A DNA stretch of 64,000 bases from Centroscyllium fabricii (Eukaryota). Location: contig JBNRSN020000015.1 of NCBI GenBank assembly GCA_051313645.2, positions 105,524,001 through 105,588,000 on the forward strand. Direction: 5' to 3'. The notes under the pieces are model-generated. The model saw only the letters and a program-made list of their open reading frames with translations. It was not told the DNA's origin and ran no database searches. The position numbers were made by a program, and so were the translations under genes. Shown here in pieces: positions 3,446-61,112 of the stretch (position 1 is its first letter; each line of letters starts with the position of its first letter).

Positions 3446-6334
3446 CTAACCCCAGTTGCCCGCACCTGGCCCATAACCCTGTATGTTATGGTCCTTCATG
3501 TGCTGGTCCAAGTATTTTTTAAATGTTGTGATGGTTCCTGCCTCCACCACCCTCACAGGCAGGGAGTTCCAGTCTTCCACCACCCTCTGGGTAAAGAAAT
3601 TTCTCCTTACCTCCCCCCTAAACCTCCCCCCCCTGATCTTGAATCTATGTCCCCTAGTGCTTGACTCTCCCACCAGGGGAAACAATGCCCCTTTGTCTAC
3701 CCTATCGTGTCCCCTCATGATCTTGTACACCTCAATCATGTCACCCCTCCACCTTCTTTTTTCCAAGGCAAACAACCCCAGCCTGTCCAGCCTTTCCTCG
3801 TAGCATAGGTCCGCCAGACCAGGTATCATCCTGGTAAACCTTCTCTGCACCCTCTCCAGGGCAGCCACATCCTTCCTGTAGTGCGGTGACCAGAACTGCA
3901 CACAGTACTCCAGCTGAGGTCTCACCAGTGTGTTATACAGGTTTAACATTACCTCCCTACTTTTGTATACTATGCCCTGGTTAATAAAGGCGAGAATTCC
4001 GTATGCCTTCTTAACCACCTTGTTAACGTGTCCAGCAACCTTCAGGGAGCTGTGCACCTGTACCCCCAGGTCCCTCTGCTCCTCGGTCCTATTTAACGTT
4101 TTGTTGTTCATGGTATATTCCCTTACCCCATTTGGTCTACCGAATTGAATGACCTCGCATTTCTCTGGGTTGAACTCCATTTGCCATTTTTCTGCCCAAT
4201 TAACCATTATATCTATATCCTCCTGAAGCCCCTTACTATCCTCATCGTTGTTTACCACCCTTCCGATTTTCGTATCATCAGCGAATTTGCTGATCGTACC
4301 CCCTACTCCCATATCCAAATCGTTGATGTATACTAGAAACAGTAAGGGTCCCAAAACCGATCCTTGGGGGACGCCACTGGTTACTGGTTTCCAGTCACAG
4401 AAGCAGCCCTCTACCATTACCCTTTGTCTCCTATCCCCCAGCCAATTTTCGATCCACTGTGCCAAGTTACCCTGTATCCCGTGCGCTCTAACCTTTGTTA
4501 TTAGTCTCCTATGTGGGACTTTATCAAAAGCTTTGCTAAAGTCCATATACACTACGTCCACAGTACTCCCTTCATCCACCCTCTTTGTTACTTCCTCAAA
4601 GAATTCCAACAGATTGGTCAGGCACGACTTACCTTTGACGAAGCCATGCTGACTGTCTCTTATTAGACCTTGGTTGTCCAAATGCGAACTGATTTTTTCC
4701 CTCAGAATTTTTTCCATTACTTTCCCCACTACAGATGTAAGACTGATTGGCCTGTAGTTGCCTGGTTTGTCCCTACTACCCTTTTTAAACAAGGGTACTA
4801 CATTAGCCGTTCTCCAGTCCTCAGGCACATCCCCTGACGTGAGAGAGGTCCTGAAGATTTGGGACAGGGGGCCCGCAAGCTCCTCCCTGGCCTCGAACAG
4901 CAGCCTGGGGAACATTGCGTCCGGCCCTGGTGATTTGTCCACCTTTAAGCCTCCCAAGATTTCTAGAACTTCTTCCCTTGTAATGGTAATATCCTCAATT
5001 ACCCCCCCTACATTCTGTCCGATTTCGATGTCGGTATCGTCCCTCTCTCTTGTGAATACTGAAGAGAAGAATTCATTTAGTACCTCCCCCACCTCCTCAG
5101 GCTCGACGCACAGCTTTCCGCTATCGTCTTTAATGGGCCCCACCCTTTCCCTCGTGATCCTTTTGTTTTTTATATAACTATAAAATGCCTTAGGGTTATC
5201 CTTGATTTTACCGGCCATTGTAATCTCATGACCTCTCTTGGCTTTTCTTATCTCCTTCTTTAAATCCCCCCTATATTTCTTATACTCCCCTAGTGCCTCC
5301 TCAGTTTTTAGCCGTTTATATTCATTAAAAGCCCCCCTTTTTTTCTTCATTAATTTACATATATCTCGAGACATCCAAGGTTCCCTTTGTTTGTCTCCCC
5401 CACCCTTAATTTTTGCAGGAACATGTTCCTCCTGTATCTTCCCGACTTCCCCTCTGAAGACCTCCCACTGCTCTGATGCAGATCTTCCTCTGAGGAGATG
5501 GCCCCAATCTACTGCGGTTACATCGTTCCTAATTTTATTGAAATCCGCCTTCCCCCAGTTTAGTATTTTTACCCCTGGTCCATTTTTATCTTTCTCCATT
5601 ACAATTTTGAAACTAACTGAATTGTGGTCGCTATCCCCGAAGTGCTCCCCCACTGTTACCTCCTCTATCTGCCCGTCCTCGTTCCCAAGTATTAGGTCTA
5701 GTACCGCCCCCCCCCTTGTAGGTGACCCCACATATTGTTTCAAAAAATTATCTTGGCTGCATTGTAAGAATGCTGAACCATCCGTGCCCCTCACACTTTG
5801 ATTCTCCCAGTTGATATTGGGGAAATTAAAGTCCCCTAGTATTGTTACTTTATTATTTTCACTGATCTTCGTGATTTGTTCACATATCTTATCCTCTACC
5901 TCCCCTTTACTGTTTGGTGGTCTATAATATACTCCCAGTAAGGTGCCCCCCCCTTTTTTATTTTTTACCTCCACCCATAGTGCCTCGTTTGAGGATTCGT
6001 CCATTAGGTCAACCCGCCTAATGGCTGTGATTGAATCTTTAATCAGTATCGCTACCCCCCCTCCCCTTTTACCCTCGTCCCTGTCCCGCCTGAAAATTCT
6101 ATACCCCGGAATGTTTAGCTGCCATTCTTGCCCCTCTTTCAGCCACGTCTCCGTGATAGCTACTATATCATATTCCCATGAGTCAACCAATACCTTTAAC
6201 TCATCCACTTTGTTAGTTAGACTCCTTGCGTTAAAGTATATGCCTTTCATTCTCTGTCCTAAAACTACCTTGTTTTGCTGTCTAGTCTGCTTTCCTTTAT
6301 TAGGTTGTGTTCCCCTATCCATTATACCTTCCAT
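3446..6334 (-). CDS. CR1 ORF2: APE endonuclease + reverse transcriptase (962 aa)
   Basis: NARSL, ITETW, YRPP, GDFN, SDH (EN); [23 protein letters not shown] (RT). Confidence 0.97.
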   Translation of the reverse strand: MEGIMDRGTQPNKGKQTRQQNKVVLGQRMKGIYFNARSLTNKVDELKVLVDSWEYDIVAITETWLKEGQEWQLNIPGYRIFRRDRDEGKRGGGVAILIKDSITAIRRVDLMDESSNEALWVEVKNKKGGGTLLGVYYRPPNSKGEVEDKICEQITKISENNKVTILGDFNFPNINWENQSVRGTDGSAFLQCSQDNFLKQYVGSPTRGGAVLDLILGNEDGQIEEVTVGEHFGDSDHNSVSFKIVMEKDKNGPGVKILNWGKADFNKIRNDVTAVDWGHLLRGRSASEQWEVFRGEVGKIQEEHVPAKIKGGGDKQREPWMSRDICKLMKKKRGAFNEYKRLKTEEALGEYKKYRGDLKKEIRKAKRGHEITMAGKIKDNPKAFYSYIKNKRITRERVGPIKDDSGKLCVEPEEVGEVLNEFFSSVFTRERDDTDIEIGQNVGGVIEDITITREEVLEILGGLKVDKSPGPDAMFPRLLFEAREELAGPLSQIFRTSLTSGDVPEDWRTANVVPLFKKGSRDKPGNYRPISLTSVVGKVMEKILREKISSHLDNQGLIRDSQHGFVKGKSCLTNLLEFFEEVTKRVDEGSTVDVVYMDFSKAFDKVPHRRLITKVRAHGIQGNLAQWIENWLGDRRQRVMVEGCFCDWKPVTSGVPQGSVLGPLLFLVYINDLDMGVGGTISKFADDTKIGRVVNNDEDSKGLQEDIDIMVNWAEKWQMEFNPEKCEVIQFGRPNGVREYTMNNKTLNRTEEQRDLGVQVHSSLKVAGHVNKVVKKAYGILAFINQGIVYKSREVMLNLYNTLVRPQLEYCVQFWSPHYRKDVAALERVQRRFTRMIPGLADLCYEERLDRLGLFALEKRRWRGDMIEVYKIMRGHDRVDKGALFPLVGESSTRGHRFKIRGGRFRGEVRRNFFTQRVVEDWNSLPVRVVEAGTITTFKKYLDQHMKDHNIQGYGPGAGNWG

Positions 6335-6357
6335 CTGGGTCCCCTCCCCCTGCCAAA

Positions 6358-7314
6358 TTAGTTTAAACCCACCCCAACCCGGCTAGCAAACCTTCCCGCA
6401 AGGATATTGGTCCCCCTCTGGTTCAGGTGCAATCCGTCCTGCGTGTATAGGTTCCACCTTCCACAGAAGTAAGACCAATTATCCAAAAAGCTGAAACCCT
6501 CCCTCCTACACCAATCTCTTAGCCACGAATTAAGCTGCTCTATCTTACGGTTCCTGTACTCATTAGCTCGTGGCACTGGGAGTAATCCAGAGATTACAAC
6601 CTTTGGGGTCCTGCTTTTTAGCTTCTTACCTAGCTCCTTAAATTTACTTTGCAGGACCTCGTCCCCCTGTTTTCCTATGTCGTTGGTGCCAATGTGGACC
6701 ACAACTTCTACCTGGTCCCCTGCCCCCCTCAAGATGCCCTGCAGCCGCTCCGTGACATCCCGGACCCTGGCACCGGGGAGGCAAATAACCATCCTGGTGT
6801 CACGTCCGCGGCCGCAGAACCGCCTCTCTGTGCCCCTTACAATTGAATCCCCTATTACTACAGCTGGCACACTAGTTTCCCTCCCTTTCTGGGCAGCCCC
6901 AGCACCCCCAGTGCCTGGAGGTAGGCTGCTGCCGCCCTCCCCTGGTGGGTCGTCCCCCTCCACAGTATCCAAAGCGGTATACTTGTTGCTCAGGGGGACG
7001 GCCACAGGGGTTCCCTGCACTTCCTTCCTCGCTCTGGCCCTCTTCTTGGTGGTCAACCATACTTCTTCTAACTGGTCTGTTTTAGTCTTTGGTGTGACCA
7101 CTCTCTCATACGTGCTATCCACGACCCGCTCGTCGTTGCCCACGCTCCACAATGACTCCATCTGCCGCTCTAGCACCGTTATGCGGTCGGCTAAGAGCTG
7201 CAGATAGACGCATCTCCTGCATACGTGTTCATCAGGGGCCCCGGTTGGGTCCCTGAATTCCCACATGCTACATGTGGAGCATATGACTGCGACGGCCTGC
7301 ACTATGTCTCCCAT
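6358..7314 (-). CDS. CR1 ORF1: zinc finger/leucine zipper + SGNH esterase (318 aa)
   Basis: CSTCSM..CRRC; GDSIVRG, PGA, HIGTND, DGLHL blocks typical of the CR1 ORF1 esterase. Confidence 0.95.
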   Translation of the reverse strand: MGDIVQAVAVICSTCSMWEFRDPTGAPDEHVCRRCVYLQLLADRITVLERQMESLWSVGNDERVVDSTYERVVTPKTKTDQLEEVWLTTKKRARARKEVQGTPVAVPLSNKYTALDTVEGDDPPGEGGSSLPPGTGGAGAAQKGRETSVPAVVIGDSIVRGTERRFCGRGRDTRMVICLPGARVRDVTERLQGILRGAGDQVEVVVHIGTNDIGKQGDEVLQSKFKELGKKLKSRTPKVVISGLLPVPRANEYRNRKIEQLNSWLRDWCRREGFSFLDNWSYFCGRWNLYTQDGLHLNQRGTNILAGRFASRVGVGLN

Positions 7315-7489
7315 TTTTCTCTTAAATCCCTAGTAGACTTAGACTACTCTGTCTCTACTGTATCTCTGCTAAATTATAATAGGTATATATATATAGTTAT
7401 ATAGATATAGTTAAAGATATACTTACCGGTTACGTCTTATGTTCTTATGTTTCTTATGTTCTCCCACAAATAGTAATGTGATAATTAAA

Positions 7490-9020
7490 TAAGATTACAT
7501 AGGATACTGCACAGAAACAGGCCATTCCGCCCTTCCAGTCCATGCCGGTGTTTATGCTCCACTCGAGCCTCTTCCCGTCTTTCCTCATCTAAATCTAGCA
7601 GCATAACCCTTTATTCCATTCTCCCTTGTCCAGCCTCCCCTTAAATGCATCCATACTATTCGCTTCAACCACTCCCTGCGGTATCGAGTTCCACATTCTC
7701 ACCACTCTTTGGGTAAAGAAGTTTCTTCTGAATTCCCTATTTGATTTCTTGGTGACTATCTTATATTGATGGCCTCTAGTTTTGCTCTTCCCCACAAGTG
7801 GAAACATTCTCTCTGTATCCACTCTATCAAAACCTTTCATCATTTTAAAAAGACCTCTATTAGGTCACCCCTCAGCCGCCTTTTTTCAGGAGAAAAGAGA
7901 CCCAGCCTGTTCATCCTTTCCTGATATGTAGACCCTCACATTTCTGGTATCGTCCTTGTAAATCTTCTCTGCACCCTCTCCAGTGCCTCTATAATCTTTT
8001 TATAATAAGGTGACCAGAACCGTACGCAATACTCTAAGTGTGGTCTAATCAAGGTTCGGAACAGGTTTAGCATAACTTCCCTACTTTGCAATTCTGTCCC
8101 TCTAGAAATAAACCCTAGTGCTTGGTTTGCTTTTTATGGCCTTGCTAACCTGTGTCAGAACTTTTAGTATTCCTAGATCCTTTTGTTCCACTACCCCACC
8201 TAGACTCGCACCCTCCAAGTGATAAGTGACCTCTCTATTCTTCCTACCAACATGTAATATCTCACATATATCTGTGTTGAACTTCATTTGCCAATTATAT
8301 GCCTATTCTGCAAGTTTATTAATGTCCTCCTGTAACTTGTTGCAGTCCTCCTCGGTATTGACTATTCCCCTCCAATTTTGTGTCATCCGCAAGTTTAGAA
8401 ATTGTGTTTTTGATTCCTAAGTCTAAATCGTTAATGTAACTTGTGAACAGCATTGTTCCCAGCACTGATCCTTGTGAAACACCACGACCCACCTTCTGCC
8501 ACTGTGAATAGCTGCCTTTTATCCCTACTCTCTGCTTTCTGTCCTAATGCCAGCCAGCAATCCATTCTGTTACCTGTCCCCTGACTCCACATTCTCTGAC
8601 CGTGTTCATCAGTCTATTATGGAGTACCTTATCAAAGGCCTTTTGAAAATCCATAAATTACATCTACTGCATTACCATTGTCTACTCTCTCTGTTACCTC
8701 TTCAAAAAATGCAATAAGGTTGGTCAAGCAAGACTTTCCCTTTTGAAATCCATGTTGACTATTCATTATTATATTTTTTGTTTCTAGATGTTCTTCTATT
8801 TTCTCCATTAAGTTTCCTACCACCAATACTAAGCTGACTGGTCTATAATTTCCTGGACATGTTCTATCCCCCTTCTTAAATATCGGTATTACTCTGGCAC
8901 TATATCTTTTCTAACGAATTTTTAAAATGTATATTAATGCCTCTGCTATCTCTTCCCCAGATTCTTTTAAAATGCATGGATGCAATCTATCCGGACCAGG
9001 GATATTGTGCTCTTTCAAAT
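7490..9020 (-). mobile_element. Decayed CR1 ORF2/3' end (continues at 15613-15645 and 15972-16180)
   Basis: RT fragments [30 protein letters not shown]; ILNNYFASVFTRE near 16010-16060. Confidence 0.9.
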
Positions 9021-9997
9021 TGAGCGAGGAGCGAGGCCCAGAGCCCAGCGGCAGCGCCCGGGGAGCGGGACTTGGAGCGAGGCCCAGAGCCCAGCGGCAG
9101 CGCCCGGGGAGCGGGACTTGGAGCGAGGCCCAGAGCCCAGCGGCAGCGCCCGGGGAGCGGGACTTGGAGCGAGGCCCAGAGCCCAGCGGCAGCGCCCGGG
9201 GAGCGGGACTTGGAGCGAGGCCCAGAGCCCAGCGGCAGCGCCCGGGGAGCGGGACTTGGAGCGAGGAGCGAGGCTTCAAAAGGAGCAGCGGCGGCGGCAA
9301 AGGCCAGACCCGGGGAGCGGGACTTGGAGCGAGGAGCGAGGCCCAGAGCCCAGCGGCAGCGCCCGGGGAGCGGGACTTGGAGCGAGGCCCAGAGCCCAGC
9401 GGCAGCGCCCGGGGAGCGGGACTTGGAGCGAGGCCCAGAGCCCAGCGGCAGCGCCCGGGGAGCGGGACTTGGAGCGAGGCCCAGAGCCCAGCGGCAGTGC
9501 CCGGGGAGCGGGACTTGGAGCGAGGCCCAGAGCCCAGCGGCAGCGCCCGGGGAGCGGGACTTGGAGCGGGACTTGGAGCGAGGAGCGAGGCTTCAAAAGG
9601 AGCAGCGGCGGCGGCAAAGGCCAGACCCGGGGAGCGGGACTTGGAGCGAGGAGCGAGGCCCAGAGCCCAGCGGCAGCGCCCGGGGAGCGGGACTTGGAGC
9701 GAGGCCCAGAGCCCAGCGGCAGCGCCCGGGGAGCGGGACTTGGAGCGGGACTTGGAGCGAGGAGCGAGGCTTCAAAAGGAGCAGCGGCGGCGGCAAAGGC
9801 CAGACCCGGGGAGCGGGACTTGGAGCGAGGAGCGAGGCCCAGTGCCCAGCGGCAGTGCCCGGGGAGCGGGACTTGGAGTGAGGCCCAGAGCCCAGCGGCA
9901 GCGCCCGGGGAGCGGGACTTGGAGCGAGGCCCAGAGCCCAGCGGCAGCGCCCGGGGAGCGGGACTTGGAGCGAGGCCCAGAGCCCAGCGGCAGCGCG
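9021..9997 (+). repeat. GC-rich 46-bp tandem array with higher-order interruptions (CR1 5' end)
   Basis: Unit GAGCGAGGCCCAGAGCCCAGCGGCAGCGCCCGGGGAGCGGGACTTG; variant block GGCTTCAAAAGGAGCAGCGGCGGCGGCAAAGGCCAGAC occurs three times. Confidence 0.97.
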
Positions 9998-10082
9998 GGC
10001 TTTTTTCAAAGCCAGGGGGCAGGGCAAATCAATTGGAACCCGTATATAGGTGGAGCAGTTGCTAAACCAGAGACACTACACT

Positions 10083-11239: not shown

Positions 11240-11635
11240 ACACTAGTGTCTCCCACCCTTCCACCTCCTCTAACCTTTAGGGGTTGAGAGAATTTTTTTT
11301 AAAAAGGTAGGTGATTTATTGATTATTTTCAGAGACTGAACGTGAGTGGAAGGGGCTCCTGGACAGAGGTAGCAGTCGGTGGCAGCAGCAGGACCAGGGC
11401 AGGAGTTTTTCGCGGGTCTTTCTTTTCAGGAGCAGGCAGCGGGACGGTACTAGGAGGAGACAACAGGAGGCGGCGGCTATAAAGGCAAGCAGGGTAAGTG
11501 ATTTATTTATTTTTATTTATTTATTTTTCTGAGGTCTCTGTGGTATAACGGGGACTTCTGATAGACTAGCACCCTAGTATATATCTTGTTTTTTGGGGTG
11601 TTAATTTTTTGTAAAAGTAATTAGGGGGGTAAGTC

Positions 11636-12584
11636 ATGTCAGTGCAGCACGGTGCCGTGCTTTGCTCCTCCTGCCATGTGGGAAGCCAGGGACACCACTG
11701 GAGCCCCTGGTGGCCATGTGTGCGGGAAATGCGTCCACCTTCAGTTACTGACTAACCGCATTGCGGCACTGGAACTGAGGGTGGATGGGTTAGGGAGCAT
11801 TCGCAAAGCTGAGGGGAGCGTGAATTACTCATACAATGAGCTGGTCACACCGCAGGCTAAGGGTGTGCAGGCAGAAGAGGAATGGGTGACCAGCAGAAAG
11901 AACAGTAGGGCCAGGCAGGTAGAGCAGGAAACCCCTGCGGCCATCCCCCTCACGAACAAGTATACCGCTTTGGATACTGTTGGGGGGGACGACCTACCAG
12001 GGGAAAGCAGCAGTGGCCAACCTTCGGGCACTGAGGTTGCTTCTGCTGTTCAGCTGGGGGGGAAAAGGCATGAGAGAGCAATAGTGGTAGGGGACTCTAT
12101 CGTAAGGGGAGCAGATAGGCATTTCTGTGGCCGTAGACGTGACTCCAGGATGGTCTGTTGCCTCCCTGGTGCCAGGGTCAAGGATGTCACGGAACGGCTG
12201 CAGGACATCCTGCAATGGGAGGGAAACCAGCCAGAGGTCGTTGTACACATAGGAATCAACGACACACGTAAAAAGAGGGAGGAGGTCCTGCAACAAGAAT
12301 TCAGGGAGCTAGGCAGAAAGTTAAAGTGCAGGACCTCAAAGGTTGTAATCTCTGGATTACTCCCTGTGCCACGATTTAGTGAGTATAGGAATAGAAGGAT
12401 AGAGCAGCTTAATACGTGGCTCAAGAGTTGGTGCAGGAGGGAGGGCTTTAGTTTCCTGGATAACTGGCCCTGTTTCTGGGAAAGGTGGGACTTGTATGGG
12501 GGCGACGGTCTCCACCTTAACCGGAAGGGGACCAATATCCTGGTGGGGAGGTTTGCTAGCATGGTTGGGGAGGGGTTAAACTAA
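11636..12584 (+). pseudogene. CR1 ORF1 (SGNH esterase), probable frameshift near the start
   Basis: CGKC, GDSIVRG, HIGIND, DGLHL; clearly homologous to 6358-7314. Confidence 0.9.
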
Positions 12585-15518
12585 CTTGGCAGGGGGATGG
12601 GATAGGTAGTGGAAAAGAGGGAGGTCATAGGAAGCCAGAAACAAATGGTAGGAAGGTGAGAAACAATAAGCAAGGGAGAGAAACACAAAGGGCCAAACAA
12701 ATTCATAATAGTGTGATCAAAACAAGCCTAAAGGCAAGAAGCATTAGGAACAAGGTGGATGAACTAGCTGTGGAAATAGAGGTAAGCAAATATGAGCTGA
12801 TTGGAATTACGGAAACATGGCTGCAGTGGGGGCAAGGCTGGGAACTCAACATCCCGGGGTATACAACATTCAGAAAGGATCGGCACAAAAGAAAGGGAGG
12901 TGGGGTGGCATTGCTGGTGAAAGAGGGGATAAATGCAATTGAAAGGAAGGATATTAGCTCAGATGATACGGAATCTATATGGGTAGAACTAAGAAATAGT
13001 AAAGGGCGGAAAACATTAGTGGGAGTTATATACAGGCCTCCAAATAGTAATATGGAGGTGGGGGACGGCATAAAAAGGGAAATTAGAGAAGCTTGCGATA
13101 AGGGCACAGCTGTCGTCATGGGCGACTTTAATCTACATATTGATTGGACTAGCCAAGTTAGTAAAAATAGTGAGGAGGAGGAATTCCTAGAATGTCTACG
13201 GGATGGGTATCTGGACCAATATGTCGAGGAACCAACTCGGGATCAGGCCATCTTAGACTGGGTATTGTGCAATGAGAAGGGACTAATTAACAATCTCGTT
13301 GTACGAGGCCCCTTGGGTCGGAGCGATCATAATATGATCGAATTCTCAGTTGAGATGGAAAGTGAAAAGATCAACTCAGAGACTAAGGTCCTGAATTTAA
13401 ATAAAGGGAATTATGAAGGTATGAGAAGGGAATTAAGCAAGATAGATTGGGCAGTGTTCCTGGGGGGATTGAATGTGGATAGACAATGGCAAGCATTCAA
13501 GTATAGGATGGAAGAAATACAGAACTCGTTCATACCGGTTTGGCATAAGAATAAACCTAGAAAGGTGACTCAACCGTGGATAACAAGGGAAATAAGGGAC
13601 AACATTAAATCCAAAAAATGGGCATATCAATTGGCCAAAAAATTACTAGGCCGGAAGATTGGGAGCAGTTCAGGATACAGCAAAGGAAGACAAAGGGATT
13701 AATCAGGAGGGGGAAGATAGATTATGAAGGGAAGCTTGCGGCAAACATAAAAACTGACTGCAAAATCTTTTATAGGTACATCAAGAGGAAAAGATTGGTA
13801 AAATCACAAGTCGGTCCCTTGCAGTCCGATTCAGGGGAATATATAATGGGGAATAAAGAAATGGCAGACCAACTAAACTCATATTTTGGTACTGTCTTCA
13901 CAAAGGAGGACACAAGCAATCTCCCAGGGATAGCAGCGAACATAGGGTCCAAGGCAAGGGAGGAGCTGACAGATATCATTATTTCTAGGGAGATGGTTTT
14001 GGGGAAGTTGAAGGGATTGAAGGCCGACAAATCCCCAGGGCCTGATAATCTACATCCTAGGGTACTTAAAGAGGTAGCCCCGGAAATAGAGTGTGCATTG
14101 AGGATCATTTTCCAGAACTCAATAGACTCTGGATCAGTACCCACAGATTGGAGGGTGGCTAATGTTACCCCACTCTTTAAAAAGGGGGGCAGAGAGAAAG
14201 CAGGGAATTATAGACCAGTAAGCCTTACATCAGTAGTGGGCAAAATGCTCGAGTCCATCATCAAGGATGTAATCTCGGAGCATTTGACAAGTAGGGATGA
14301 GATCGGACAGAGTCAACACGGGTTTACAAAAGGTAAATCATGTTTAACTAATCTATTGGAATTCTTTGAAGAAGTAACTCGGAAAATAGATGGCGGAGAG
14401 CCAGTAGATGTGGTGTACCTTGACTTCCAGAAAGCTTTCGATAAGGTCCCACATAAAAGATTAGCATGTAAAATTAAGGCTCATGGGATTGGGGGCAAAG
14501 TTTTGATGTGGATAGAGAACTGGTTGGCAGACAGAAAACAGAGAGTTGGAATTAACGGCTCCTTTTCTGAGTGGCAGTCGGTGACTAGTGGAGTACCGCA
14601 GGGGTCTGTCCTGGGACCTCAGCTGTTTACAATATATATTAATGATCTGGATCAGGGAATTGAATGTAATATCTCCAAATTCGCGGACGACCCAAACTAG
14701 GAGGGGGGGCAGGCTCTGAAGAGGGTGTCAGGAAGCTACAGGGCGATTTGGATAAGTTGGGGGACTGGGCAGATAGATGGCAGATGCACTATAATGTGGA
14801 TAAATGTGAGGTTATCCACTTTGGGGGCAAAAACAGGAGGGCAGATTACTACTTAAATGGCAGTAGATTGGGAGATGGGGAGGTGCAGAGAGACCTAGGT
14901 GTTCTTGTACACCAGTCGCTGAAGGCGAGCACGCAGGTGCAGCAGGCGGTTGGGAAGGCAAATGGTATGTTGGCCTTCATATCAAGAGGGTTCGAGTATC
15001 GGAATAAGGATACCTTACTGCAGCTGTACAAGGCACTGGTGAGACCACACCTCGAGTATTGTGTACAGTTCTGGTCGCCTCGCCTGAGGAAGGATGTTCT
15101 TGCCATGGAAGGAGTGCAGCGGCGTTTCACCAGGCTGATTCCTGGAATGGCAGGAATGACCTACGAGGAGAGATTGTGTAGTCTGGGCTTGTACTCGTTG
15201 GAGTTTAGAAGATTGAGAGGCGATCTCATTGAGACGTATAAAATTCTGAAAGGTCTGGACAGGCTAGATTCAGAGAGAATGTTTCCAATGACGGGGGAGT
15301 CCAGAACCAGGGGCCACAGTCTAAGGATAAGGGGTAAACCATTTAGGACAGACATGAGGAAGAATTTCTTCACTCAGAGAGTGGTGGGCCTGTGGAATTC
15401 CCTGCCACAGAGGGCGGTGGAGGCCAGTTCATTAAACATATTCAAGAGGGAATTGGATATATTTCTTCAAGCTAAAGGGATTAAAGGTTATGGAGAAAAG
15501 GCGGGGACGGGGTACTAG
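12581..15518 (+). pseudogene. CR1 ORF2 (EN-RT) with two frameshifts
   Basis: EN and RT motifs spread over three ORF pieces; breaks near 13640 and 14695. Confidence 0.93.
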
Positions 15519-35760: not shown

Positions 35761-36006
35761 TGATGTGACAAAAGAGACCTACACATCAATAACTCTAAGC
35801 AAAGCTTTAATCAACTATTTACAGAGTTAGAGTTTCACATGCTTACAGGGGAAGCATCATCCCAGACTGGATAGCAGCAGAACTTATACCACTAGACAGG
35901 AAGTGACGTATATACAGGAAGTGACATGTAAAAAGGAAATGATGTCACAGGAAATACATATGCAGAGTTCATTAGACTTTCTGCCGGAAGTTTCAATATC
36001 ACCACA
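35761..36006 (-). mobile_element. Solo LTR (246 bp) with Mag-like termini
   Basis: TG..CA; 5-bp TSD AGGAC; minus strand TGTGGT...CACATCA like the LTRs at 45426 and 59663; repeated CAGGAAGTGAC. Confidence 0.85.
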
Positions 36007-36094: not shown

Positions 36095-39000
36095 TGTGGC
36101 GGCACGCCCACTGGGACACCGAATCCGCCACGGGAACTCCGCGGAGCAGAGCCCCGCTCATCCGGGTGACGCGACGACGTCACCACGTCTGCCTGCGTGA
36201 TGACGTCACCAACGGCAGGCAGTTTAAATAAGCTTGTTGCGAGTGGTTCACTCTCGTTTCTGTTTAACTCTTATGCATTAAACAAGTGTTTTCTCTAGCT
36301 CTCTGGCTCACGCGTGGTTTCTAGGCCTTGCTGGCGCTACAGTGGTGACCCCGACGAGATCAATGTGGACGTGGTCAAAGCGTCTGGCCGGCACTTTAAA
36401 TGTTTCCAGCGGTGCCCTGATGTGCTTGTGCACTTTGGAGCGCTGGCAGGCAATGCAGGCGTTGGCCCAGGCGCGGACGTCTTTGCGCAGGCCGCGCCAT
36501 ACGAACCGGGCCGAGATAAGTTTAATGGACGCGCGGGTGCCGGGGTGGGACAGGTCATGGAGGGTCTTGAAAATGTGTCACCTCCAAGCGTGGGGGACAA
36601 CGGGCCTGGGCTGCGGCAGGGACACGTCGCAGCAGACGACGGTGGCAGCGGGGCCGTGCGCGATATTGGCCAAGTGGAGGCCGGGGAGATTTGCTGCTGA
36701 GTTGAGCAGGTCAGGGTCGGCCAGCTGGTCAGCGGCCAGCTGGGCGTAATCGACCGCCATTTGGGCGGCGTTAATGGTGGGGCGTGAGAGGCAGTCAGCG
36801 ACCACGTTGTCGCGGCCGGAGATATGCTGAATGTCGGTCGTAAATTCCGACACGGCCGCGAGTTGGCGCTGCTGCCTGGCCGACCAGGGTTCGGCGACCT
36901 TAGCCATCACGAAGGTGAGTGGCTTATGGTCGACGAAGGCTGTGAAGTGGCGGCCCTCCAGGAGGAAGCGAAAATGTCGCACTGCCAGATGGAGAGCGAG
37001 GAGCTCCCTATCGAAGGCGCTGTACTTGACCTCTGGGGGCCGGAGTTGCCGGCTGAAAAAGGCCAGGGGCTGCCACGAGTTGCCGGTCCACTGCTCAAAT
37101 ACGGCCCCGACCGCGTGGTCGGAGGCGTCGGTGGTGAGGGCTACTCTGGCATTGGGCCTAGGGTGGGCTAGGAGGGTGGCGTTAGCCAGGGCGGTTTTAG
37201 TTGCGGTGAAGGCGGTGGCGGCGTCGGCCGTCCACTCAACCGCAGCCTTGTTCGACTGCCCGCGAGTGGCCTGGTATAAGGGGGCCATGAGAGCGGCTGC
37301 TCCCGGGATAAAGCGGTTATAAAAATTGACCATCCCCAGAAATTCCTGCAGCCCCTTAATGGAGTGCGGGCGGGGAAATTCCTGGACCGCCTGCACCTTG
37401 GAGGGCAGGGGTATGGCCCCGGTTTGGGAAATGCGGTGGCCGAGAAAGTCAATGGTTTGGAGGCCGAATTTACACTTGGTAGGGCTTAATATTAGGCCGT
37501 GTTCGACCAGGCACTGGAACAGGGTCCTGAGGTGCAGGAGGTGTTCCTGGGGGGAGGTGCTGGCCACGAGGATGTCGTCTAAGTAGACGAAGATGAACTT
37601 CAGGTCCCGTAGGACCGAGTCCATGAGGCGCTGGAAGGCCTGGGCCGCGTTTTTAAGGCCGAAGGGCACCCTGAGAAACTCGAAGAGTCCAAAGGGAGTG
37701 ATAACGGCCGTTTTAGGAATGTCCGCCGGGTGCACCGGAACCTGGTGGTAGCCACGCACCAGGTCGATTTTGGAGAAGATCGTGCAGCCCGCTAATCTGG
37801 CAGAAAAATCCTGGATGTGGGGTACGGGGTACCTATCCGGGGTGGTGGCGTTGTTTAGGCGGCGGTAGTCGCCACAGGGGCGCCAACCCCCGTCCGGCTT
37901 GGGGGCTATGTGGAGAGGAGAGGCCCAGGGGCTGTTGGAGCGGCGGATTATACCGAGTTGCTCCATGGTGCGGAACTCGGTGCGCGCAATCTCCTGTTTG
38001 GCCGGGTCAAGCCTACGGGCGTGGGCATGGACGGTAGGGCCTGTGGTAGTTATAAAATGTTCCACCCCGTGTTTGGCCTGGCGGGCGGTGAACGTGGGGT
38101 TGGTTAGGGCGGGGAACTCTGCTAGGAGTGTGCCGTAGGCATCGGAGTTCCGAGAGCGGCATTGGGCGGCCGCGTGGGCCAGGAGTGCGGGCCCTGTGAA
38201 GCATGGGATGGTCGACATGTTATTCATGTTGACCAAGCGGCGCCGGGTCATATCGACCAGCAGGCCGTAGGCGCAGAGGAAATCTGCTCCGAGGAGGGGT
38301 GAAGTGACCTGCGCTGTGACAAAGTCCCAGGTGTACCTGTGGCTTGCAAGCGTAATCGTGAGTTTGCGGGTGCCGTACGTTTTGATATTGGAGCCATTGG
38401 CCGCTGCGAGTGGCGGGCCCCGGGTGCCTTGTTTGGTTTCTGCAGGGGAGGCTGGCACGATGCTGTGCTGTGCGCCTGTGTCGCAGAGGAATTGGAGGCC
38501 TGTGCCGCTGTCTGTAACAAAGAGCAGTGCTCCTGTGTGTCCTACAGACATAGTGGGGGCTGAGGTGGGCCGTGGCTTAAATGCGCATGGCTCGACGCAG
38601 CGGTGCGCTTTGCTATCGAACCGCGTGTGGTAGTAGCACCAGCTGGTGCTAGAGGGACGCGGTTGCCTCGGTGGGCGCGGGGCCCTAGTTTCAGGCATGA
38701 AGTTGGCCCTGGGGGGCGATTGGTTGCGCTCTATGGATGCGGAGTTAGGGTCGCACGTGGTTGAGCGGGTGCGCTGTGCCTCCATGAGCCTGTCGGCCTC
38801 CTCAGCGAGCTCGTCGTTGCTCCGCTGGCCGAGGGCCGGCCAAGGCCGGCCTGATGGAGCGGGGTAGTTTGAGGAGGAAAACGGTGCGGAACAGGGAGGC
38901 GGGATTGGCGGTGAGCGCTTGCATCTGACGTAAAAGGTCTGATGGGTCTGCGTCCCCGAGTTCGGGGAGGTCAAGGAGCTGGCAGTCGCGCTCGAATTGA

Positions 39001-39502
39001 GAGGGGGTAAAAAAAATTATGAGCGCGGTCTTAAGCGATTCGTACCTGCCTGTAGTGGGCACACGTTATAGCGGGCGAGACGACAGTCCCCGCACAACCA
39101 CCGCAACGCGGACGCCCTCCCGCAACAACACCCGCCCACACTCCACCGCAGAACCAGAAGCAACATGCAACACGGGCCGGCCGCATCATCCGGCCACCCC
39201 AACGGCTCACATAGACACTTTTATATTACTCCCGGATGGATTCTGGGGGGAGCTGTGTGGCGGCACGCCCACTGGGACACCGAATCCGCCACGGGAACTC
39301 CGCGGAGCAGAGCCCCGCTCATCCGGGTGACGCGACGACGTCACCACGTCTGCCTGCGTGATGACGTCACCAATGGCGGGCAGTTTAAATAAGCTTGTTG
39401 CGAGTGGTTCACTCTCTTTCCTGTTTAACTCTTATGCATTAAACAAGTGTTTTCTCTAGCTCTCTGGCTCACGCGTGGTTTCTAGGCCTTGCTGGCGCTA
39501 CA
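36095..39502 (+). mobile_element. CsRn1-clade Gypsy element with an inverted, deleted internal region
   Basis: 247-bp LTRs 36095-36341 and 39256-39502 (4 differences); TSD ATAA; PBS TGGTGACCCCGACG at 36343 and PPT near 39245 on the plus strand; gag-pol on the minus strand. Confidence 0.93.
36350..39062 (-). pseudogene. Partial gag-protease-RT-RNase H-integrase zinc finger, antisense to the LTRs
   Basis: [18 protein letters not shown] (CHCC), DTGA, YLDD, TDAS; frameshift near 38815; stop at 36578; ends at HVHIDLVG. Confidence 0.92.
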
Positions 39503-45425: not shown

Positions 45426-48400
45426 TGACGTATCGTCAATACCTTCGATTAAAAGAGTCGACGAGTAGTTACCGAAACTAAAGGCTTTTAATTGCTAAGA
45501 ACGGAGCTACCCTCCGGAACGAACTTCTGTACAGGAATGAGGAGCCTCGGTCAGATCTCACCTATAATGGGGCCTCACCTGGGGGAGGAGTTGGAGGTGT
45601 GGCTGACCTGGCTCCCAACGGTGTCACAGTATACAGGGCTGTGCCTAACATCTGCACAGCCCATTATTAGCCATAATAATACAGTGGTAATGTTAACACG
45701 AAAGGGTTACCACATTCACCCCTTCTTGAAAATTTTAAGTCTGGGGGTGGGGGGGGTGAATGGGTCGAACAGTTCATGATAAGTCTGTCTGGCGGTCGTG
45801 TCTGCCTGGAGGACCGCCGGCGTTCCGGTGTTGATGGTGGTGCCTCCTGGTTAGAATCGCCCGCATCTGCCAGTGCTGTGGCTTCAGGTGGCGATGGACT
45901 CGGCTGGTCCCCGCCGTCCGGGTCATAGTTCAGTGCAGGCCACTGCAGGGGACATCGTGTGTCTGGTGGTTGGTCGGCCTGCTGGCCGGCCGGGGGCTCT
46001 GCGGTGGTGCTTCCTGCGGGAGCCAGGTCCCTGATGGACACGGTGTCCTCACGCCCGTCCGGGAACTGCACGAATGCATAGTGGGGGTTCGCGTGTAGGA
46101 GCTGTACCTTGTCCACCAGGGGGTCTGTCTTGTGGCTCCGGACATGCCATCTAAGCAAAACCGGCTCCGGAGTCGTCAGCCATGGAGGAAGAGCTGTCCC
46201 CGAAGTCGACCTCCTGTTGAAAGAGAAAATCAGATCGTGCGGGGTGGCGTTAGTAGCAGTACATAATAGAGAGCGTATAGAGTGCAGCGCGTCTGGGAGG
46301 ACCGCCTGCCATTGGGACACTGGAAGGCCTCTGGACTTGAGAGCCAGGGTGACCGCCTTCCAAATGATCCCATTCTCCCTTTCTACCTGGCCGTTCCCCC
46401 GGGGGTTATAACTGGTCGTTCTGCTCGTGGCAACCCCTCTCTGGAGCAGAAACTGGCGCAGGTCATCGCTCATGAACGATGACCCCCGGTCGCTATGGAT
46501 GTAGCTGGGGAGACCGAAGATGGCGAACAGCGTGGTGAAGTGTTTGATCACCGTTGCGCTCGTCATGTCTGGGCAGGGGAATGCGAAGGGGAAGCGGGAG
46601 AACTCATCCACTACCGTGAGGAAGTATGAGTTGTGGTCGGTGGATGGGAGGGGGCCTTTGAAGTCCACGCTGAGACGTTCAAAGGGGCGGGTGGCCTTAA
46701 TGAGGTGCGCCGTGTCTGGCCGGAAAAAGTGGGGTTTGCACTCGGCGCAGACAGGGCACTCTCGGGTCATAGCCTTGATCTCCGTGATGGAGTAGGGGAG
46801 GCTACGGGACTTGACGAAGTGGGTGAGTCTGGTGACACCCGGGTGGCAAAGGCGGTCGTGGAGTTCCTTCAGCCGGTCTAGCTGGGCACTGGCGCACGTT
46901 CCCCTGGACAGTGCGTCCGGGGGTTCATTGAGTTTACCTGGTCGGTAAAGAATGTCATACTCGTAAGTCGAGAGTTCGATCCGCCACCGCAGGATCTTAT
47001 CATTCTTGATTTTACCCCGTTGTTTATTGTTAAACATAAACGCCACCGACCGTTGGTCGGTGAGCAGGGTAAAACGCTTACCGGCCAGGTAATGACGCCA
47101 GTAGCGCACGGCCTCCACGATGGCCTGGGCCTCCTTTTCCACTGCTGAGTGGCGAGTTTCGGGTCCCTGTAGGGTGCGGGAGAAAAACGCTATGGGCCTG
47201 CCTGCCTGATTCAGGGTGGCAGCAAGGGCAATGTCCGAAGCGTCGCTCTCCACCTGGAAAGGGATGGATTCATCAACAGCGAGCATGGCCGCCTTGATAA
47301 TATCTTCCTTTATCCTTGCGAATGCCGTTTGGGCTTCTACAGAAAGGGGGAAGACGGCAGCCTTGAGGAGTGGTCTAGCCTTATCTGCGAACTGTGGGAC
47401 CCATTGTGCTTAATAGGAGAAAAATCCTAGGCATCTCCTCAAAGCTTTGGGGTTGTGAGGTAGGGGCAGTTCTTGCAGGGGTCGCATACGCTGTGGGTCG
47501 GGGCCGAGGACCCCGTTCTCCACCACGTATCCGAGGATGGCGAGCCGGTCTGTATTAAAGACGCATTTGTCTTTGTTATACGTAAGGTCCAGCTTGTCCG
47601 CCGTGGCGAGGAATTTGGCCAGATTGGCATCGTGGTCCTGCTGGTCGTGGCCGCAGATGGTCACGTTGTCCAGGTAAGGGAAAGTGGCCTGCAAGTCGTT
47701 TTGGTCAACCATACGGTCCGTCTCTCGTTGGAACACTGACACTCCATTGGTCACGCCAAAGGGGACCCGGAGGAAGTGGTAGAGCCGACCGTTCGCCTCG
47801 AAGGCGGTGTAGGGGCGGTCGGCTTTCCGAATCGGGAGCTGATGATACGCCGATTTAAGGTCGATCGTGGAGAACACATTGCACTGGGCGATCTGATTGA
47901 CCATTTCCGAGATGCGGGGAAGGGGGTAGGCGTCGAGCCCGGTGTTGCGGTTGATAGTCTGGCTGTAATCGATAACCAGCCGCTGTTTTTCACCAGACTT
48001 CACCACTACAACTTGGGCGGGCCAGGGGCTGGTGCTGGCTTCAATTATCCCCTCCATCAGCATCCGCCCGACCTCCGACCTGATAAACGTGCGATCCCCC
48101 TCACTGTACCGCCGACTCTTAGTAGCAATGTTTGCACTTCCGATCGAGATTGGCGAACAGCGAGGGGGGATCGATTTTCAGGGTGGAGAGGCCGCAGGCC
48201 GGGCTCCGCTTTGGGAAGAGATTGTCCCGGCTACTGACGGTGAGGAGGGGCAAGGTCCCACCGAACTCCATTGTCACGCTCCTGAAGTGGCACTGGAAGT
48301 CCAAACCTAGTAAGGCTGGGGCACACAACTGCTGGAGGGTATACAATTTAAAATTACGGTACACGCGCCCCTTGACGGTGAGCGTGACGGAGCAGTAGCC

Positions 48401-50144
48401 GGTGACGTCCGCGGTGTGGGACTGTGAAGCTAGGGAGACTTGGTAGTTGGTTGGCAGGACCTGCAGTCCGCAGCGCCGCACTGATTTGGGGTGAACGAAA
48501 CTCTCAGTGCTGCCTGTGTCGAAAAGGCAGTCGACAGTGCAGTCATTAATATTAATCGGCATCATGGAGTTAGACAGGGTATGAGGCCTGTCCTGGCTAA
48601 CTCTGATTCTGGTTGCCGCAGCCCCTGCTGATCGGGGCTGTGCACAAGATGGCGGCGCCCCTGGCTCGCACATGGTGGGGCCCTGGATACAAGATGGCGT
48701 CACCCCTGGCTCGCACATGGAGGTGCCCTGGATACAAAATGGCGTCGCCGAGGGGACGCACATGGTGGGGCCCTGTGAACGCGCTGGCGGCGCCCGTGAT
48801 TCGCACGCAGCAGACCGCGGTGATCGGGTTGGCGGTGCCCGTGATTCGCACGCAGCAGGCCGCGGTGGTCGGGTTGGCGGTGCCCGTGATTCGCACGCAG
48901 CCGGCCGCGTTGGGGGGTCGCGCTTGGCCGGCATTTGCCGCATCGGGGTGGGGGATGGGGGCGCTTGTTGTCTACCCCCGTACCGTCGCTGGATCGCGCT
49001 GCTATTGCAGCTTACCTGGTGTCTGTCGGTGCTTTCACAGGCTGCACTGTTGTACCTTGAGTTGGGCGCTGCTGGAGCTGATCTGCAGGCTTTAGCGTAG
49101 TGTCCCTTCTTAGCACATTTCTCGCAGGTCGCTGTCCTGGCTGGGTATTTCGCTCTTGGGTGCAGTCCCTGGCTACAGAAGTAGCAGCGTTTATCTTTAG
49201 TGGCCGTCGCAGCCATCGTGGGGGCCTCGGCCCATTGCTCCCAGGCCTGGGCCTGTTGTGGTACGGCCCATATGTTGTAGGCTTGCGGGTTAGTGCCGCT
49301 GTACGCCTGTAACTTGCTTCGGGCCCCCTCTACTGATTTGGCTATCTTAGTCGCCTCCTCGAGGGATAAATCGTCTTTCTCTAGTAGCCGCTGGTGGGCT
49401 TCCACACACCTCAGACCTATAACGTAAGCGTCCCGAACGAGGAGTTCTGCCTCCTCTTCAGCTGTTCTGACTTGGCAGCCACAGACTCGCACCAAGGCCA
49501 GGAGCGCTTGCTCGAACTCCTCATTGGACTCACCCGGTAGCTGAGATCTGGTCGCAAGCACATGTCGGGCGTAGACCGAATGGACCGGGCGCTCGTAGCA
49601 TTTTTTCAATATTCGTACGACCGCTGTGTAGGTTGAGGCGTTCCTGATGAGGGTGAATACCCTGCTGGAGATCCTCGACCGGAGGACCTGCAGCTTGTTC
49701 CTGTCCGATGTAGCCTTGGCGGCGTCCATGTAGGCCTCCAGGAGGCCGAACCAGTGTTCGTACGTGGTAGCAGCGGCAGTGTCCTGGGGACTGATGTCCA
49801 GCTTCTCAGGTTTAACTGCGCTGCTCTCCATTTAAAAATAATTAGCAATTAAAATTGACGTATCGTCAATACCTTCGATTAAAAGAGTCGACGAGTAGTT
49901 ACCGAAACTAAAGGCTTTTAATTGCTAAGAACGGAGCTACCCTCCGGAACGAACTTCTGTACAGGAATGAGGAGCCTCGGTCAGATCTCACCTATAACGG
50001 GGCCTCACCTGGGGGAGGAGTTGGAGGTGTGGCTGACCTGGCTCCCAACGGTGTCACAGTATACAGGGCTGTGCCTAACATCTGCACAGCCCATTATTAG
50101 CCATAATTATACAGTGGTAATGTTAACACAAAAGGGTTACCACA
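45426..50144 (-). mobile_element. Full-length Gypsy LTR retrotransposon, Mag-like, without a tRNA PBS
   Basis: 289-bp LTRs 45426-45714 and 49856-50144 (3 differences); TSD ACCCT/ACCCC; PPT AAGAAGGGGGTGAA; double Cys/His knuckle gag, DTGS, RT, RNase H, integrase. Confidence 0.95.
45770..49831 (-). pseudogene. gag-pol with one frameshift (about 48125) and one stop (47410)
   Basis: ORFs 48119-49831, 47410-48063, 45667-47286; RT motif YLDN; integrase H..H..CxxC, DFKGP, SDRG, ERENG. Confidence 0.93.
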
Positions 50145-54512: not shown

Positions 54513-54639
54513 TAAGCATCAACTTCATGATTTGAATAGTAGAGGTGTTAACCAAACATGGCAAATATAGACTGCATTTGAAAGTGTTTTGCTTTGTTTG
54601 GCCTCATACAGAAGACATCACTTATATCTTCCATATAAT

Positions 54640-54890
54640 GCCATGAGAAAAGGGAGAGGCCGAGAGCAGAGTGGAAGAAAAGGGCGAGGCCGAGAGCAGA
54701 GCTGGTGAAAAGGGCGAGGCCGAGAGCAGAGCGGGTGAAAAGGGCGAGACCGAGACTGGAAAACCAGAAAAGGGCGAGACCGAGACTGGAACACTAGAAA
54801 GGTGCGAGGCCGAGAAAGCAGCAGGAGAAAAAGCTGAGGCTGAGAGCAAAGCACTAGAAAATGGCAAGGCCGAGAGCGGAGTGCGAGAAA
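54640..54890 (+). repeat. 30-bp purine-rich tandem repeat upstream of a CR1 ORF1
   Basis: About 8 units of GAAAAGGGCGAGGCCGAGAGCAGAGCNGGT. Confidence 0.9.
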
Positions 54891-55083
54891 TGGGTGGTTG
54901 ACATGGGAGAAAAATTGCAAAGTGACGTCACAGCACAAGTAGAGGCGGTGGGGGCAAGTTACAGGTAAATGTTTAATTTAAGCTACCTATAACTTAAACT
55001 AGATCAAGCAATTAGTTAAAAAATAAAAGCTAAGTTGAAACTTTCATTAATTAATTGATTAAACAAAGCAAAGTTAGATTGGA

Positions 55084-59662: not shown

Positions 59663-61112
59663 TGTGGTAAACCATTATTTCCTAATGCCATACCACTGTT
59701 GGGGCGGCACGGTGGCATAGTGGTTAGCACTGTTGCCTCACAGCGCCAGGGGCCTAGGTTCAAATCCAGCCTCGGGTGACTGTCTGTGTGGAGTTTGCAC
59801 ATTCTTCCCGTGCCTGCATGGGTTTCCTCCAGGTGCTCCGGTTTCCTCCCACAGTCCAAAGATGTGCGGGTTAGGTTGATTGGCCAGGATAAATTGACCC
59901 TTAGTGTTAGGGGGACTAAACATGTGGGGTTTCGGGGATAGGATGGGGTATGTGTCGGTGCAGGCTCGATGGGCCGAAATGGCCTCTATCTGCACTGTAG
60001 GGAATCTATGATTCTATGATTCCATGTTGTACTGCTGTACTGCTGTCTGTAAATACCTTACTGCTGCCTGTAAATACCTGTATACTGATACATACAGGAG
60101 CTTGCCCTGGCTGACCCCGCCTCTGACTCCACCTCCGGACTCATGTATATAGGTACTTGCTCACCCACCTCTGGTCAGTACACCACTGAGCTCAGCCGAG
60201 ACACGCTCCATTCTTTAGTGAATAAAAGCCGTATAGTTAAGGTTAAGTCTTTGGCCCTATTGATGGTACATCAATTTTATTCACAAAATTTTCGACAATG
60301 GAGCACTTACTAAAACCGGAACGCCTAGACCTCGACCCCCAGGCACCGAATGCATCGAATGACTTTGAGCACTGGCTCAGCTGCTTCGAAGCTTACCTGG
60401 AGCCGGTGACGCTGACAAATGAAAAATGCAGGTCTCCAGGGTAAGCGGCCGGGTGTACTCACTCATCAGGGACACCAAGATGTACAAAGATGCAATCCAG
60501 AAGCAGAAGGGCCAGTACCTACACCCGATCAACTTGGTGTAGGCCAGGTACCTACTGGCCGGTTGAGTCAAACGTGGAGTTCCTTTGGGCGCTCCAGACC
60601 CTCGTTCGGGCCTGCGACTGCACCGCAGTGACCGCCGAAGAGCACGCAGATTACCTGGTCCGAGATGCGTATGTGGCGGGGCTCAGGTCCAGCCAGGCCC
60701 GTCAGCGACTACTGGAGCAGGACAATCTCTCCCTTGACTCCGCCATCTCGCTGTCCAACGCTGTCTCGCAGTCGACGGGGCCCTCCGGAGCTTGGACTCG
60801 TACTCGGCAGGTAACCCCCATGCGGGCCATCTAATCCCTGTGCATCACAAACGCTTCTCCCAGCGCAGGCCCCAATGACGGCAGCGGCGGCTGCGACCCC
60901 GGTGAAGACTCCAGCAGGCCCCAGATGGTACTTCTGCGGCCAGGCGAAACACCAGCGACAGCTGTGCCCCGCGAGGAGTGCAACGTGCGCTAAGTGCGGA
61001 AAGAAGGGCCACTTCGCAAAAGGCTGTAAATCCGGCCCGGCCTCCAGACCCAACAGGCCTGCGAATCCAACGAAGCCATTCCGTGGCCACAGGTACGGTG
61101 CTGCAGTGTGAT
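59663..61112 (+). mobile_element. Truncated Mag-like Gypsy: 5' LTR 59663-60273 (containing a SINE) and decayed gag from ATG 60298
   Basis: TGTGGTAA start, AATAAA, CATCA end; MEHLLKPERLDLDP, VRDAYVAGL, CAKCGKKGHFAKGC homologous to the gag starting at 49831. Confidence 0.88.
59701..60020 (+). mobile_element. HE1-like V-SINE
   Basis: A/B boxes, V-domain, CR1-type tail. Confidence 0.93.

Follow-up and report, generated by a model that had tools for sequence, protein, structure and literature searches.

Leader complementarity to the LTR points to self-priming, probably with a long 5′ RNA fragment, in a Gypsy lineage without a chromodomain found from corals to sharks

Results

A Gypsy element lacking a tRNA primer site in the Centroscyllium fabricii window

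The window, a 64,000-nucleotide stretch of Centroscyllium fabricii DNA (contig JBNRSN020000015.1, positions 105,524,001 to 105,588,000), contains on its minus strand, at 45426–50144, a Gypsy element of a family that we call A, with a YLDN reverse transcriptase (RT) and no chromodomain. Its 5′ LTR (49856–50144, minus strand) extends from TG to CA, ending ...CGTCA at 49856, and its 3′ LTR occupies 45426–45714 on the same strand; both are 289 nt long, with 3 differences between them, and the element is flanked by a near-perfect 5-bp target duplication (GGGGT/AGGGT). The frame for gag and protease (48119–49831, minus strand) begins 24 nt past the LTR with the gag ATG at 49831, the RT, RNase H and integrase frames cover 45667–48177 (minus strand) and a polypurine tract is found at 45719–45727 (minus strand). 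The order of protease, RT, RNase H and integrase, the TG..CA LTRs, the polypurine tract and the target duplication are all those of Ty3/Gypsy elements. In this copy the open reading frame is interrupted between protease and RT (48119), and there is a stop at 47410. An in-frame 45-nt tandem repeat at 48650–48912 has zinc knuckles on one side and the protease on the other.

The gag-start pattern has 118,636 matches in the 7.2-Gb host genome, against 1 for the control, and identity within family A is 96–100% across all 150 scored matches; the family is young and abundant. Elsewhere the window holds tandem arrays with units of 46 nt (8941–10042) and 30 nt (54616–54915), as well as a pair of LINEs in opposite orientations (3446–7329 and 11625–15518) whose ORF1 is GDSL esterase-like. 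A Gypsy element at 36095–39502 has a TGG primer binding site (PBS) and a polypurine tract on the plus strand, while its 812-aa protease-RT-RNase H frame (36578–39016) lies on the minus strand and an integrase reading RFDHVHIDLVG leads directly into the reverse complement of the PBS. Judged by its sequence, this element carries an internal inversion at a microhomology in the PBS.

The leader is complementary to the poly(A)-signal segment of its own LTR

The initial annotation had observed that no TGG-initiated PBS follows the 5′ LTR of family A and that a 24-nt leader precedes the gag ATG, and both observations are borne out by the sequence. The leader is more than AT-rich, as it had been described, being the reverse complement of the poly(A)-signal segment of the LTR. 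After one spacer A (49855), from position +2 past the 5′ LTR, it reads TTTTAATTGCTAA (49842–49855 with the spacer, minus strand), the exact reverse complement of the 13–14 nt that end at the poly(A) signal (49928–49916); this LTR segment, TTAGCAATTAAAA (49916–49928, minus strand), includes the poly(A) hexamer and would form the paired 3′ part of the primer. We refer to the leader segment as the self-PBS. The operational rule for self-priming in the excerpted text of PMC6317226 is that at least 10 bp of the 5′ LTR are complementary to a stretch starting 0–5 nt past the LTR, and the window copy has 13 bp from +2. Both of the window's other Gypsy elements do carry a TGG PBS, and ARAGORN found no tRNA in the window.

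The self-PBS was examined in the host genome and in metagenome contigs of unstated host, where test loci were picked on gag alone and scored for the longest complement of the leader to their own upstream sequence. Among the 30 host loci, 28 had a self-complement of at least 12 bp, as did 11 of the 12 representatives, whereas the host controls gave 9/132 in cross-family comparisons and 2/240 for shuffled sequences at 10 bp. After 6 of 46 metagenome loci with too short an upstream sequence had been set aside, the same length was reached in 25 of the remaining 40 (12 of 21 representatives), against 12/420 cross-family comparisons. With a threshold of at least 10 bp the counts are 28/30 host and 28/40 metagenome loci; the other 12 metagenome loci fall under 10 bp, and part of these low-scoring loci have no self-complement at all.

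The pairing register is fixed, with TAAA|RCC set against CA|A|TTTA and TTTA located one base past CA. Among 31 family representatives, namely the rows scoring at least 11 (11/12 host, 20/25 metagenome), all four Watson–Crick pair types occur at positions 6–9 and no G·U pair at positions 1–12, and leader positions 4–14 vary among families in step with the LTR of each family. No TGG was found in any of the 35 representatives having the CA|ATTT anchor. A 3′ LTR could be located in 31 of 40 long loci, with the same CA terminus in 30 of those. Past the end of the presumptive primer, the window copy has a conserved RCC and a short RCCT..AGGY stem (49901–49915, minus strand).

Two further families of the lineage are represented in the window. 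The family B copy (60214–60300, plus strand) has a putative primer segment at 60214–60227, a hairpin at 60259–60275, a self-PBS at 60275–60288 with one mismatch in this copy and an ATG at 60298. The solo LTR of a third family (35761–36006, minus strand) ends as annotated and is flanked by the duplication AGGAC; its full-length relatives carry the self-PBS that was predicted for them. For this family the prediction was fixed before the search, which yielded 6 of 30 loci with a common internal sequence, 5 of them starting with the predicted complement and 1 being one base off.

Folding of the window copy's RNA predicts the helix between leader and R with a probability of 0.62–1.0. The poly(A) hexamer is predicted to be paired with a probability of 0.91–1.0 in the 5′ LTR versus 0.22–0.34 in the 3′ LTR, where the leader partner is absent. 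The complete 159-nt RNA folds no better than its shuffles (z = −1.33), and when the fold is set beside the three-duplex 'pretzel' that surrounds the PBS in the Tf1/sushi group, the central helix is well supported and the flanking stems differ by family. Most host families conserve a CTCC just upstream of the helix (49930–49937); its pairing with a GGAG where gag starts (49826–49833) could extend the helix over the AUG.

Promoter motifs and aberrant copies locate a candidate RNA 5′ end

A TATA-like box (49990–49997, minus strand) lies 28 nt upstream of the predicted transcription start, the A at 49968 within an initiator-like motif (49964–49971, minus strand), at which the ends of antisense-R extensions described below pile up. 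The spacing from the TATA-like box to the YCATT initiator is 28–31 nt in all four subfamily groups, and the initiator stands about 40 nt upstream of the helix. No TATA was seen 25–30 nt before the helix itself; the conserved one sits about 70 nt before it. In these four groups of the host genome, one of which has a very different R, the distance from predicted start to paired 3′ end is 51–53 nt. In the window copy a putative 53-nt RNA primer, bounded by the predicted start and the last base of AUUAAAA, would thus cover 49916–49968 (minus strand).

Certain copies have a leader that continues as antisense R. Four search patterns gave 155, 85, 175 and 219 matches, 634 together, and the controls gave 0. 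We examined 190 of these, dropped 34 that had no match to their own R and analysed the remaining 156, in which the extension ended at the predicted start (52 loci), inside R (35) or in U3 (19), ran to the 5′ end of the LTR (24) or belonged to a locus without promoter motifs (26). Because aberrant copies are rare and many have one common junction, at gag position 441, loci were collapsed by sequence similarity into 68 distinct end events: 22 at −2 to +1 of the start predicted from TATA and initiator, 30 inside R and 16 in U3. The density of ends per nucleotide is 5.5 at −2 to +1, 1.0 in R and 0.17 in the next 30 nt of U3 (P = 5e-8 versus a uniform distribution within R). Mismatches between the extension and the copy's own LTR amount to 64/3,543 for extensions ending at the start, 9/630 for those in R and 35/2,090 for the U3 of fold-backs, figures that do not separate origin in cis from origin in trans.

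The sites at which antisense-R extensions rejoin the element are spread from the leader to the integrase. Loci L209, L215, L232, L244, L256, L262, L265, L282 and others have antisense R joined to gag at element position 441; they probably form a non-autonomous subfamily that carries a 53-bp self-PBS and has been amplified. Of the 24 loci that reach the 5′ end of the LTR, 13 carry perfect 5-bp duplications and are built from an LTR and a U3-R in inverted orientation, the structure that fold-back of a strong-stop DNA terminating in a PBS copy should yield. Palindromic insertions of one LTR plus inverted U3-R were noted at L220, L224, L251, L295, L297, L301, L302, L345, L356, L362 and L384, and here the integrase appears to have taken two U3 ends. 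A search for polyadenylated retrocopies returned one match (n = 1), from a sister subfamily, which ends 15–17 nt past the primer end AATAAAA.

The terminal hairpin is a feature of host families

The hairpin ATTGACG-ATA-CGTCAAT, which the initial annotation had placed across the LTR boundary as the likely priming structure, is present at the end of U5 (49870–49854, minus strand), its stem reaching 2 nt past the LTR end. The counterpart at 60259–60275 likewise has the reported sequence ATTGATG-GTA-CATCAAT and a 24-nt leader, but the compensatory change from C:G to T:A is not fixed in family B, where the position is C, giving a C·A mismatch, in 17 of 30 copies and T at a CpG in 13 of 30, counted with a query that carried T. 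Plain CpG decay as the source of this T fits poorly as a full account, given 13 TG versus 0 CA. True compensation was found in another host family, ATTGATA-CGG-TATCAAT, with two compensated pairs.

Conservation of the stem, on which the earlier proposal depended, holds for the host and fails beyond it: of the 12 gag-picked representatives of host families, 10 have a stem of at least 6 bp (6–7 bp), a length reached at 16/640 random LTR positions, while the count for metagenome representatives, all of which equally lack TGG, is 3 of 23 (2 more have no anchor). In the window RNA the hairpin is absent from the minimum-energy fold and has a pair probability of 0.16–0.33, losing to another U5 stem with which it competes. 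It is a genuine feature of host (elasmobranch-like) families and not the lineage's substitute for a PBS; its role in those families is likely accessory, as a U5 stem next to the 3′ end of the primer. The broader idea of tRNA-independent, structure-based priming is supported, with the 13–14-bp helix between leader and R as the structure in place of the terminal hairpin.

The lineage lies apart from the SH3_Tf2-1 chromoviruses of the same genome

The best protein matches of the lineage are from catsharks and rays, and named relatives come from sharks, rays, Oculina, Actinostola, Porites, Pocillopora, Mytilus, Trichuris and Cyamophila, with open reading frames of 1,180–1,290 aa. A gag search with the representatives gave 1,930 matches at E 0.001 with a broad spread; scans of viral contigs found no relative of the lineage. 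Most members have YLDN as the RT catalytic motif; some from invertebrates have YLDD. Neither a chromodomain nor SH3_Tf2-1 was detected in any of 6 full polyproteins at E 0.1, while a host comparator was positive for the chromodomain. RT identity between the lineage and the host SH3_Tf2-1 chromoviruses is 28%, with a range of 23–32%, compared with 40–48% between those chromoviruses and the window's tRNA-primed elements.

In the RT tree, a branch with 100/100 support sets the 36 lineage rows apart from all others, and the 6 SH3_Tf2-1 rows join the 2 tRNA-primed rows. Since the tree is unrooted, comprises three groups and comes with a long-branch warning, a separate origin of self-priming is likely rather than proven. 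The tree excludes four SH3_Tf2-1 loci whose RT match came from nested lineage copies, and two more loci gave no RT. Four host SH3_Tf2-1 elements, L411 (with chromodomain), L412, L418 and L419, have LTR–leader complements of 9–11 bp located 126–219 nt upstream, which would make two self-complementary lineages in one genome.

We take the Cigr-1 clade of Gypsy to be the probable phylogenetic home of the lineage. Cigr-1 has a single open reading frame of about 1,210 codons, short LTRs and a Mag-like gag. The clade is present in a tunicate and in molluscs according to the available portion of PMC6238403, and the literature searched gave no priming mode for Cigr-1. The precedent named in the initial annotation, Selgy as a group from invertebrates, does not apply: Selgy is described in the excerpt of PMC6317226 as a Selaginella-specific plant clade of non-chromoviruses, whereas the relatives found here are from sharks, rays, corals, a mussel, a psyllid and a nematode.

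Discussion

A self-priming cycle with a long primer

We are confident that the lineage primes itself, whichever the length of the primer, and consider it probable that the minus strand is primed by a 52–53-nt 5′ fragment of the element's own RNA. Transcription would initiate at the TATA/initiator site, some 53 nt before the point of cleavage, as both the promoter motifs and the stops of the extensions suggest. With the predicted start 52–53 nt from the paired 3′ end, the primer is likely a 5′ fragment of about 53 nt and not one of 11 nt as in Tf1. Moreover, an RNA whose 5′ end lies at the initiator supplies a boundary there that DNA as template lacks, so that a 52–53-nt primer would be the simplest reading of the extension ends.

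The R segment ending UAAA(A) would pair with the leader, an interaction predicted for the RNA on the background of the observed complementarity and covariation. A cut at AAA|RCC would then release a 3′ OH, probably through RNase H acting in cis by analogy with Tf1, in which an RNase H cut frees the primer (PMC7175516, in part). RT would copy the spacer A and U5 and subsequently jump via the 15–17 nt of R before the poly(A) site; with cleavage in cis, the end of the retrocopy (n = 1 for the site) would leave this length of R available for it. Plus-strand strong-stop synthesis would copy the primer as well, as is suggested by Tf1, whose cDNA keeps a PBS copy made from the primer (PMC11042837, in part), and the PBS would thereby be rewritten from R in each cycle. 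Such rewriting would explain the lock-step covariation almost without G·U pairs. Run-through to the 5′ end of the primer would produce the observed aberrant copies, although the antisense extension could also come from a jump onto the RNA 5′ end and not from an attached primer. The helix would also mask the poly(A) signal of the 5′ LTR.

We regard as rather unlikely a variant in which host 3′-end processing at the poly(A) signal of the 5′ LTR, or transcription stopping prematurely there, makes the primer in place of the element's RNase H; the product, a short capped transcript of R, would prime a full-length genome in trans. Were it true, the choice of poly(A) site and the priming of reverse transcription would be one switch; in the literature searched, no LTR element or retrovirus is described as priming in this way.

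Alternative readings of the leader

A primer of Tf1 type, with the productive start at the 5′ end of the helix, a length of 13–14 nt and the 53-nt extensions coming from a minor upstream start, would agree with the fact that perfect pairing ends at 13–14 bp in most host copies. It would further match the Tf1 primer, which is the first 11 bases (PMC7175516, in part), and the regulation of a fission-yeast element by alternative start sites reported in the accessible part of PMC5341516. We nevertheless judge it unlikely, as the conserved TATA stands 28–31 nt before the upstream initiator with none at the corresponding distance from the helix, and the extensions stop at the upstream start in four groups. 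Quite unlikely, too, is that the helix serves solely as a switch masking the 5′ poly(A) signal, with priming left to a small RNA, a protein or de novo initiation. The paired segment of host families does contain AATAAA or ATTAAA, which folding predicts to be paired in the 5′ LTR and unpaired in the 3′ LTR, and one retrocopy shows that the signal is used. Masking alone is weakened by the metagenome families, 11 of 20 of which pair a non-canonical hexamer, 6 of these 11 having a separate AWTAAA downstream and outside the helix; nor does masking need a fixed one-base register to the LTR end or explain antisense R joined to that end.

The terminal ATTGA..TCAAT hairpin, proposed in the initial annotation, could draw on its 6–7-bp stem in most host family representatives, on the compensatory changes in one host family and on the fungal GalEa Copia elements, in which a hairpin replaces the PBS (PMC5445492, in part). 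That it is the priming structure seems very improbable in view of the scarcity of the stem among metagenome representatives that equally lack TGG, the mismatch in 17 of 30 family B copies and a pair probability of at most 0.33; in addition, its 5′ arm, if used as a primer, would sit on U5 itself. Priming on the leader by a host tRNA fragment, the LTR match arising secondarily when DNA synthesis switches template at an inverted repeat, has a parallel in the half-tRNA primers known from Copia lineages (PMC6317226, in part), and the fold-back products show that template switching occurs in this lineage. We hold it to be extremely unlikely: leader positions 4–14 track each LTR, so every family would need a tRNA of its own, and nothing about the initiator would make a DNA fold-back stop there.

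Implications and comparison with known systems

Self-priming is known in the Tf1/sushi chromoviruses and has been predicted in one plant Copia lineage. If the long-primer reading is correct, it would have had a separate origin in a non-chromovirus Gypsy lineage that spans corals to sharks and accounts for about 119,000 gag-start matches in the host genome, and a long primer reaching from the RNA 5′ end to the poly(A) signal would at the same time solve how the poly(A) site of the 5′ LTR is ignored. The aberrant copies would constitute a fossil record that maps the primer 5′ end without RNA data, an approach applicable to other elements lacking a PBS. The lineage also bears on a question that the excerpted text of PMC3601003 leaves open, namely whether elements lost tRNA priming several times or acquired it late. 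The arrangement was not described in the literature searched, a scope that leaves outside most subscription papers and Repbase, where a prior note is possible; the portions available of PMC8220671, PMC3601003, PMC4600332 and PMC13524379 make no mention of the lineage. Self-priming with a long primer is, in our estimation, likely a new variant relative to both Tf1/sushi and plant Copia self-priming.

Tf1, Tf2, Tj1, Tosmo, sushi-ichi and the Tcn1 clade are Tf1/sushi chromoviruses, a group delimited in the accessible sections of PMC10085805. Like these elements (PMC7175516, PMC10085805, both in part), the lineage has no tRNA site, a sequence right after the 5′ LTR that is complementary to a segment of that LTR, and flanking U5 stems, which in the lineage vary by family. 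Unlike them, it has no chromodomain, and its RT is as distant from the host chromoviruses as given above. By its sequence, the lineage would work like Tf1 yet stands outside the Tf1/sushi group in that partial definition. In the lineage the paired segment is found some 40 nt into R, with the poly(A) signal at its end and the PBS 33–76 nt away, whereas in Tf1 it is the first 11 nt; the primer is predicted to be 52–53 nt long as opposed to the first ~11 nt of the Tf1 transcript.

The TAR Copia lineage of plants (Houba, Osr-1) resembles the lineage in that self-priming is predicted from LTR–leader complementarity, and differs in belonging to the Copia superfamily and to plants, with neither a primer length nor a link to the poly(A) signal described in the excerpt of PMC6317226. 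The Conserved Hairpin Site of GalEa and the inverted repeats of bivalve TRIMs share with the lineage the absence of a tRNA PBS and a palindrome or hairpin at the junction of LTR and leader (PMC5445492, PMC6934838, both in part). In GalEa, however, two leader segments pair with each other, as two conserved 9-nt repeats, and its authors found no complementary LTR sequence according to the available text of PMC5445492; the bivalve TRIM hairpins have no LTR partner in that of PMC6934838. In the lineage described here, by contrast, the leader is variable and its pairing partner lies in R.
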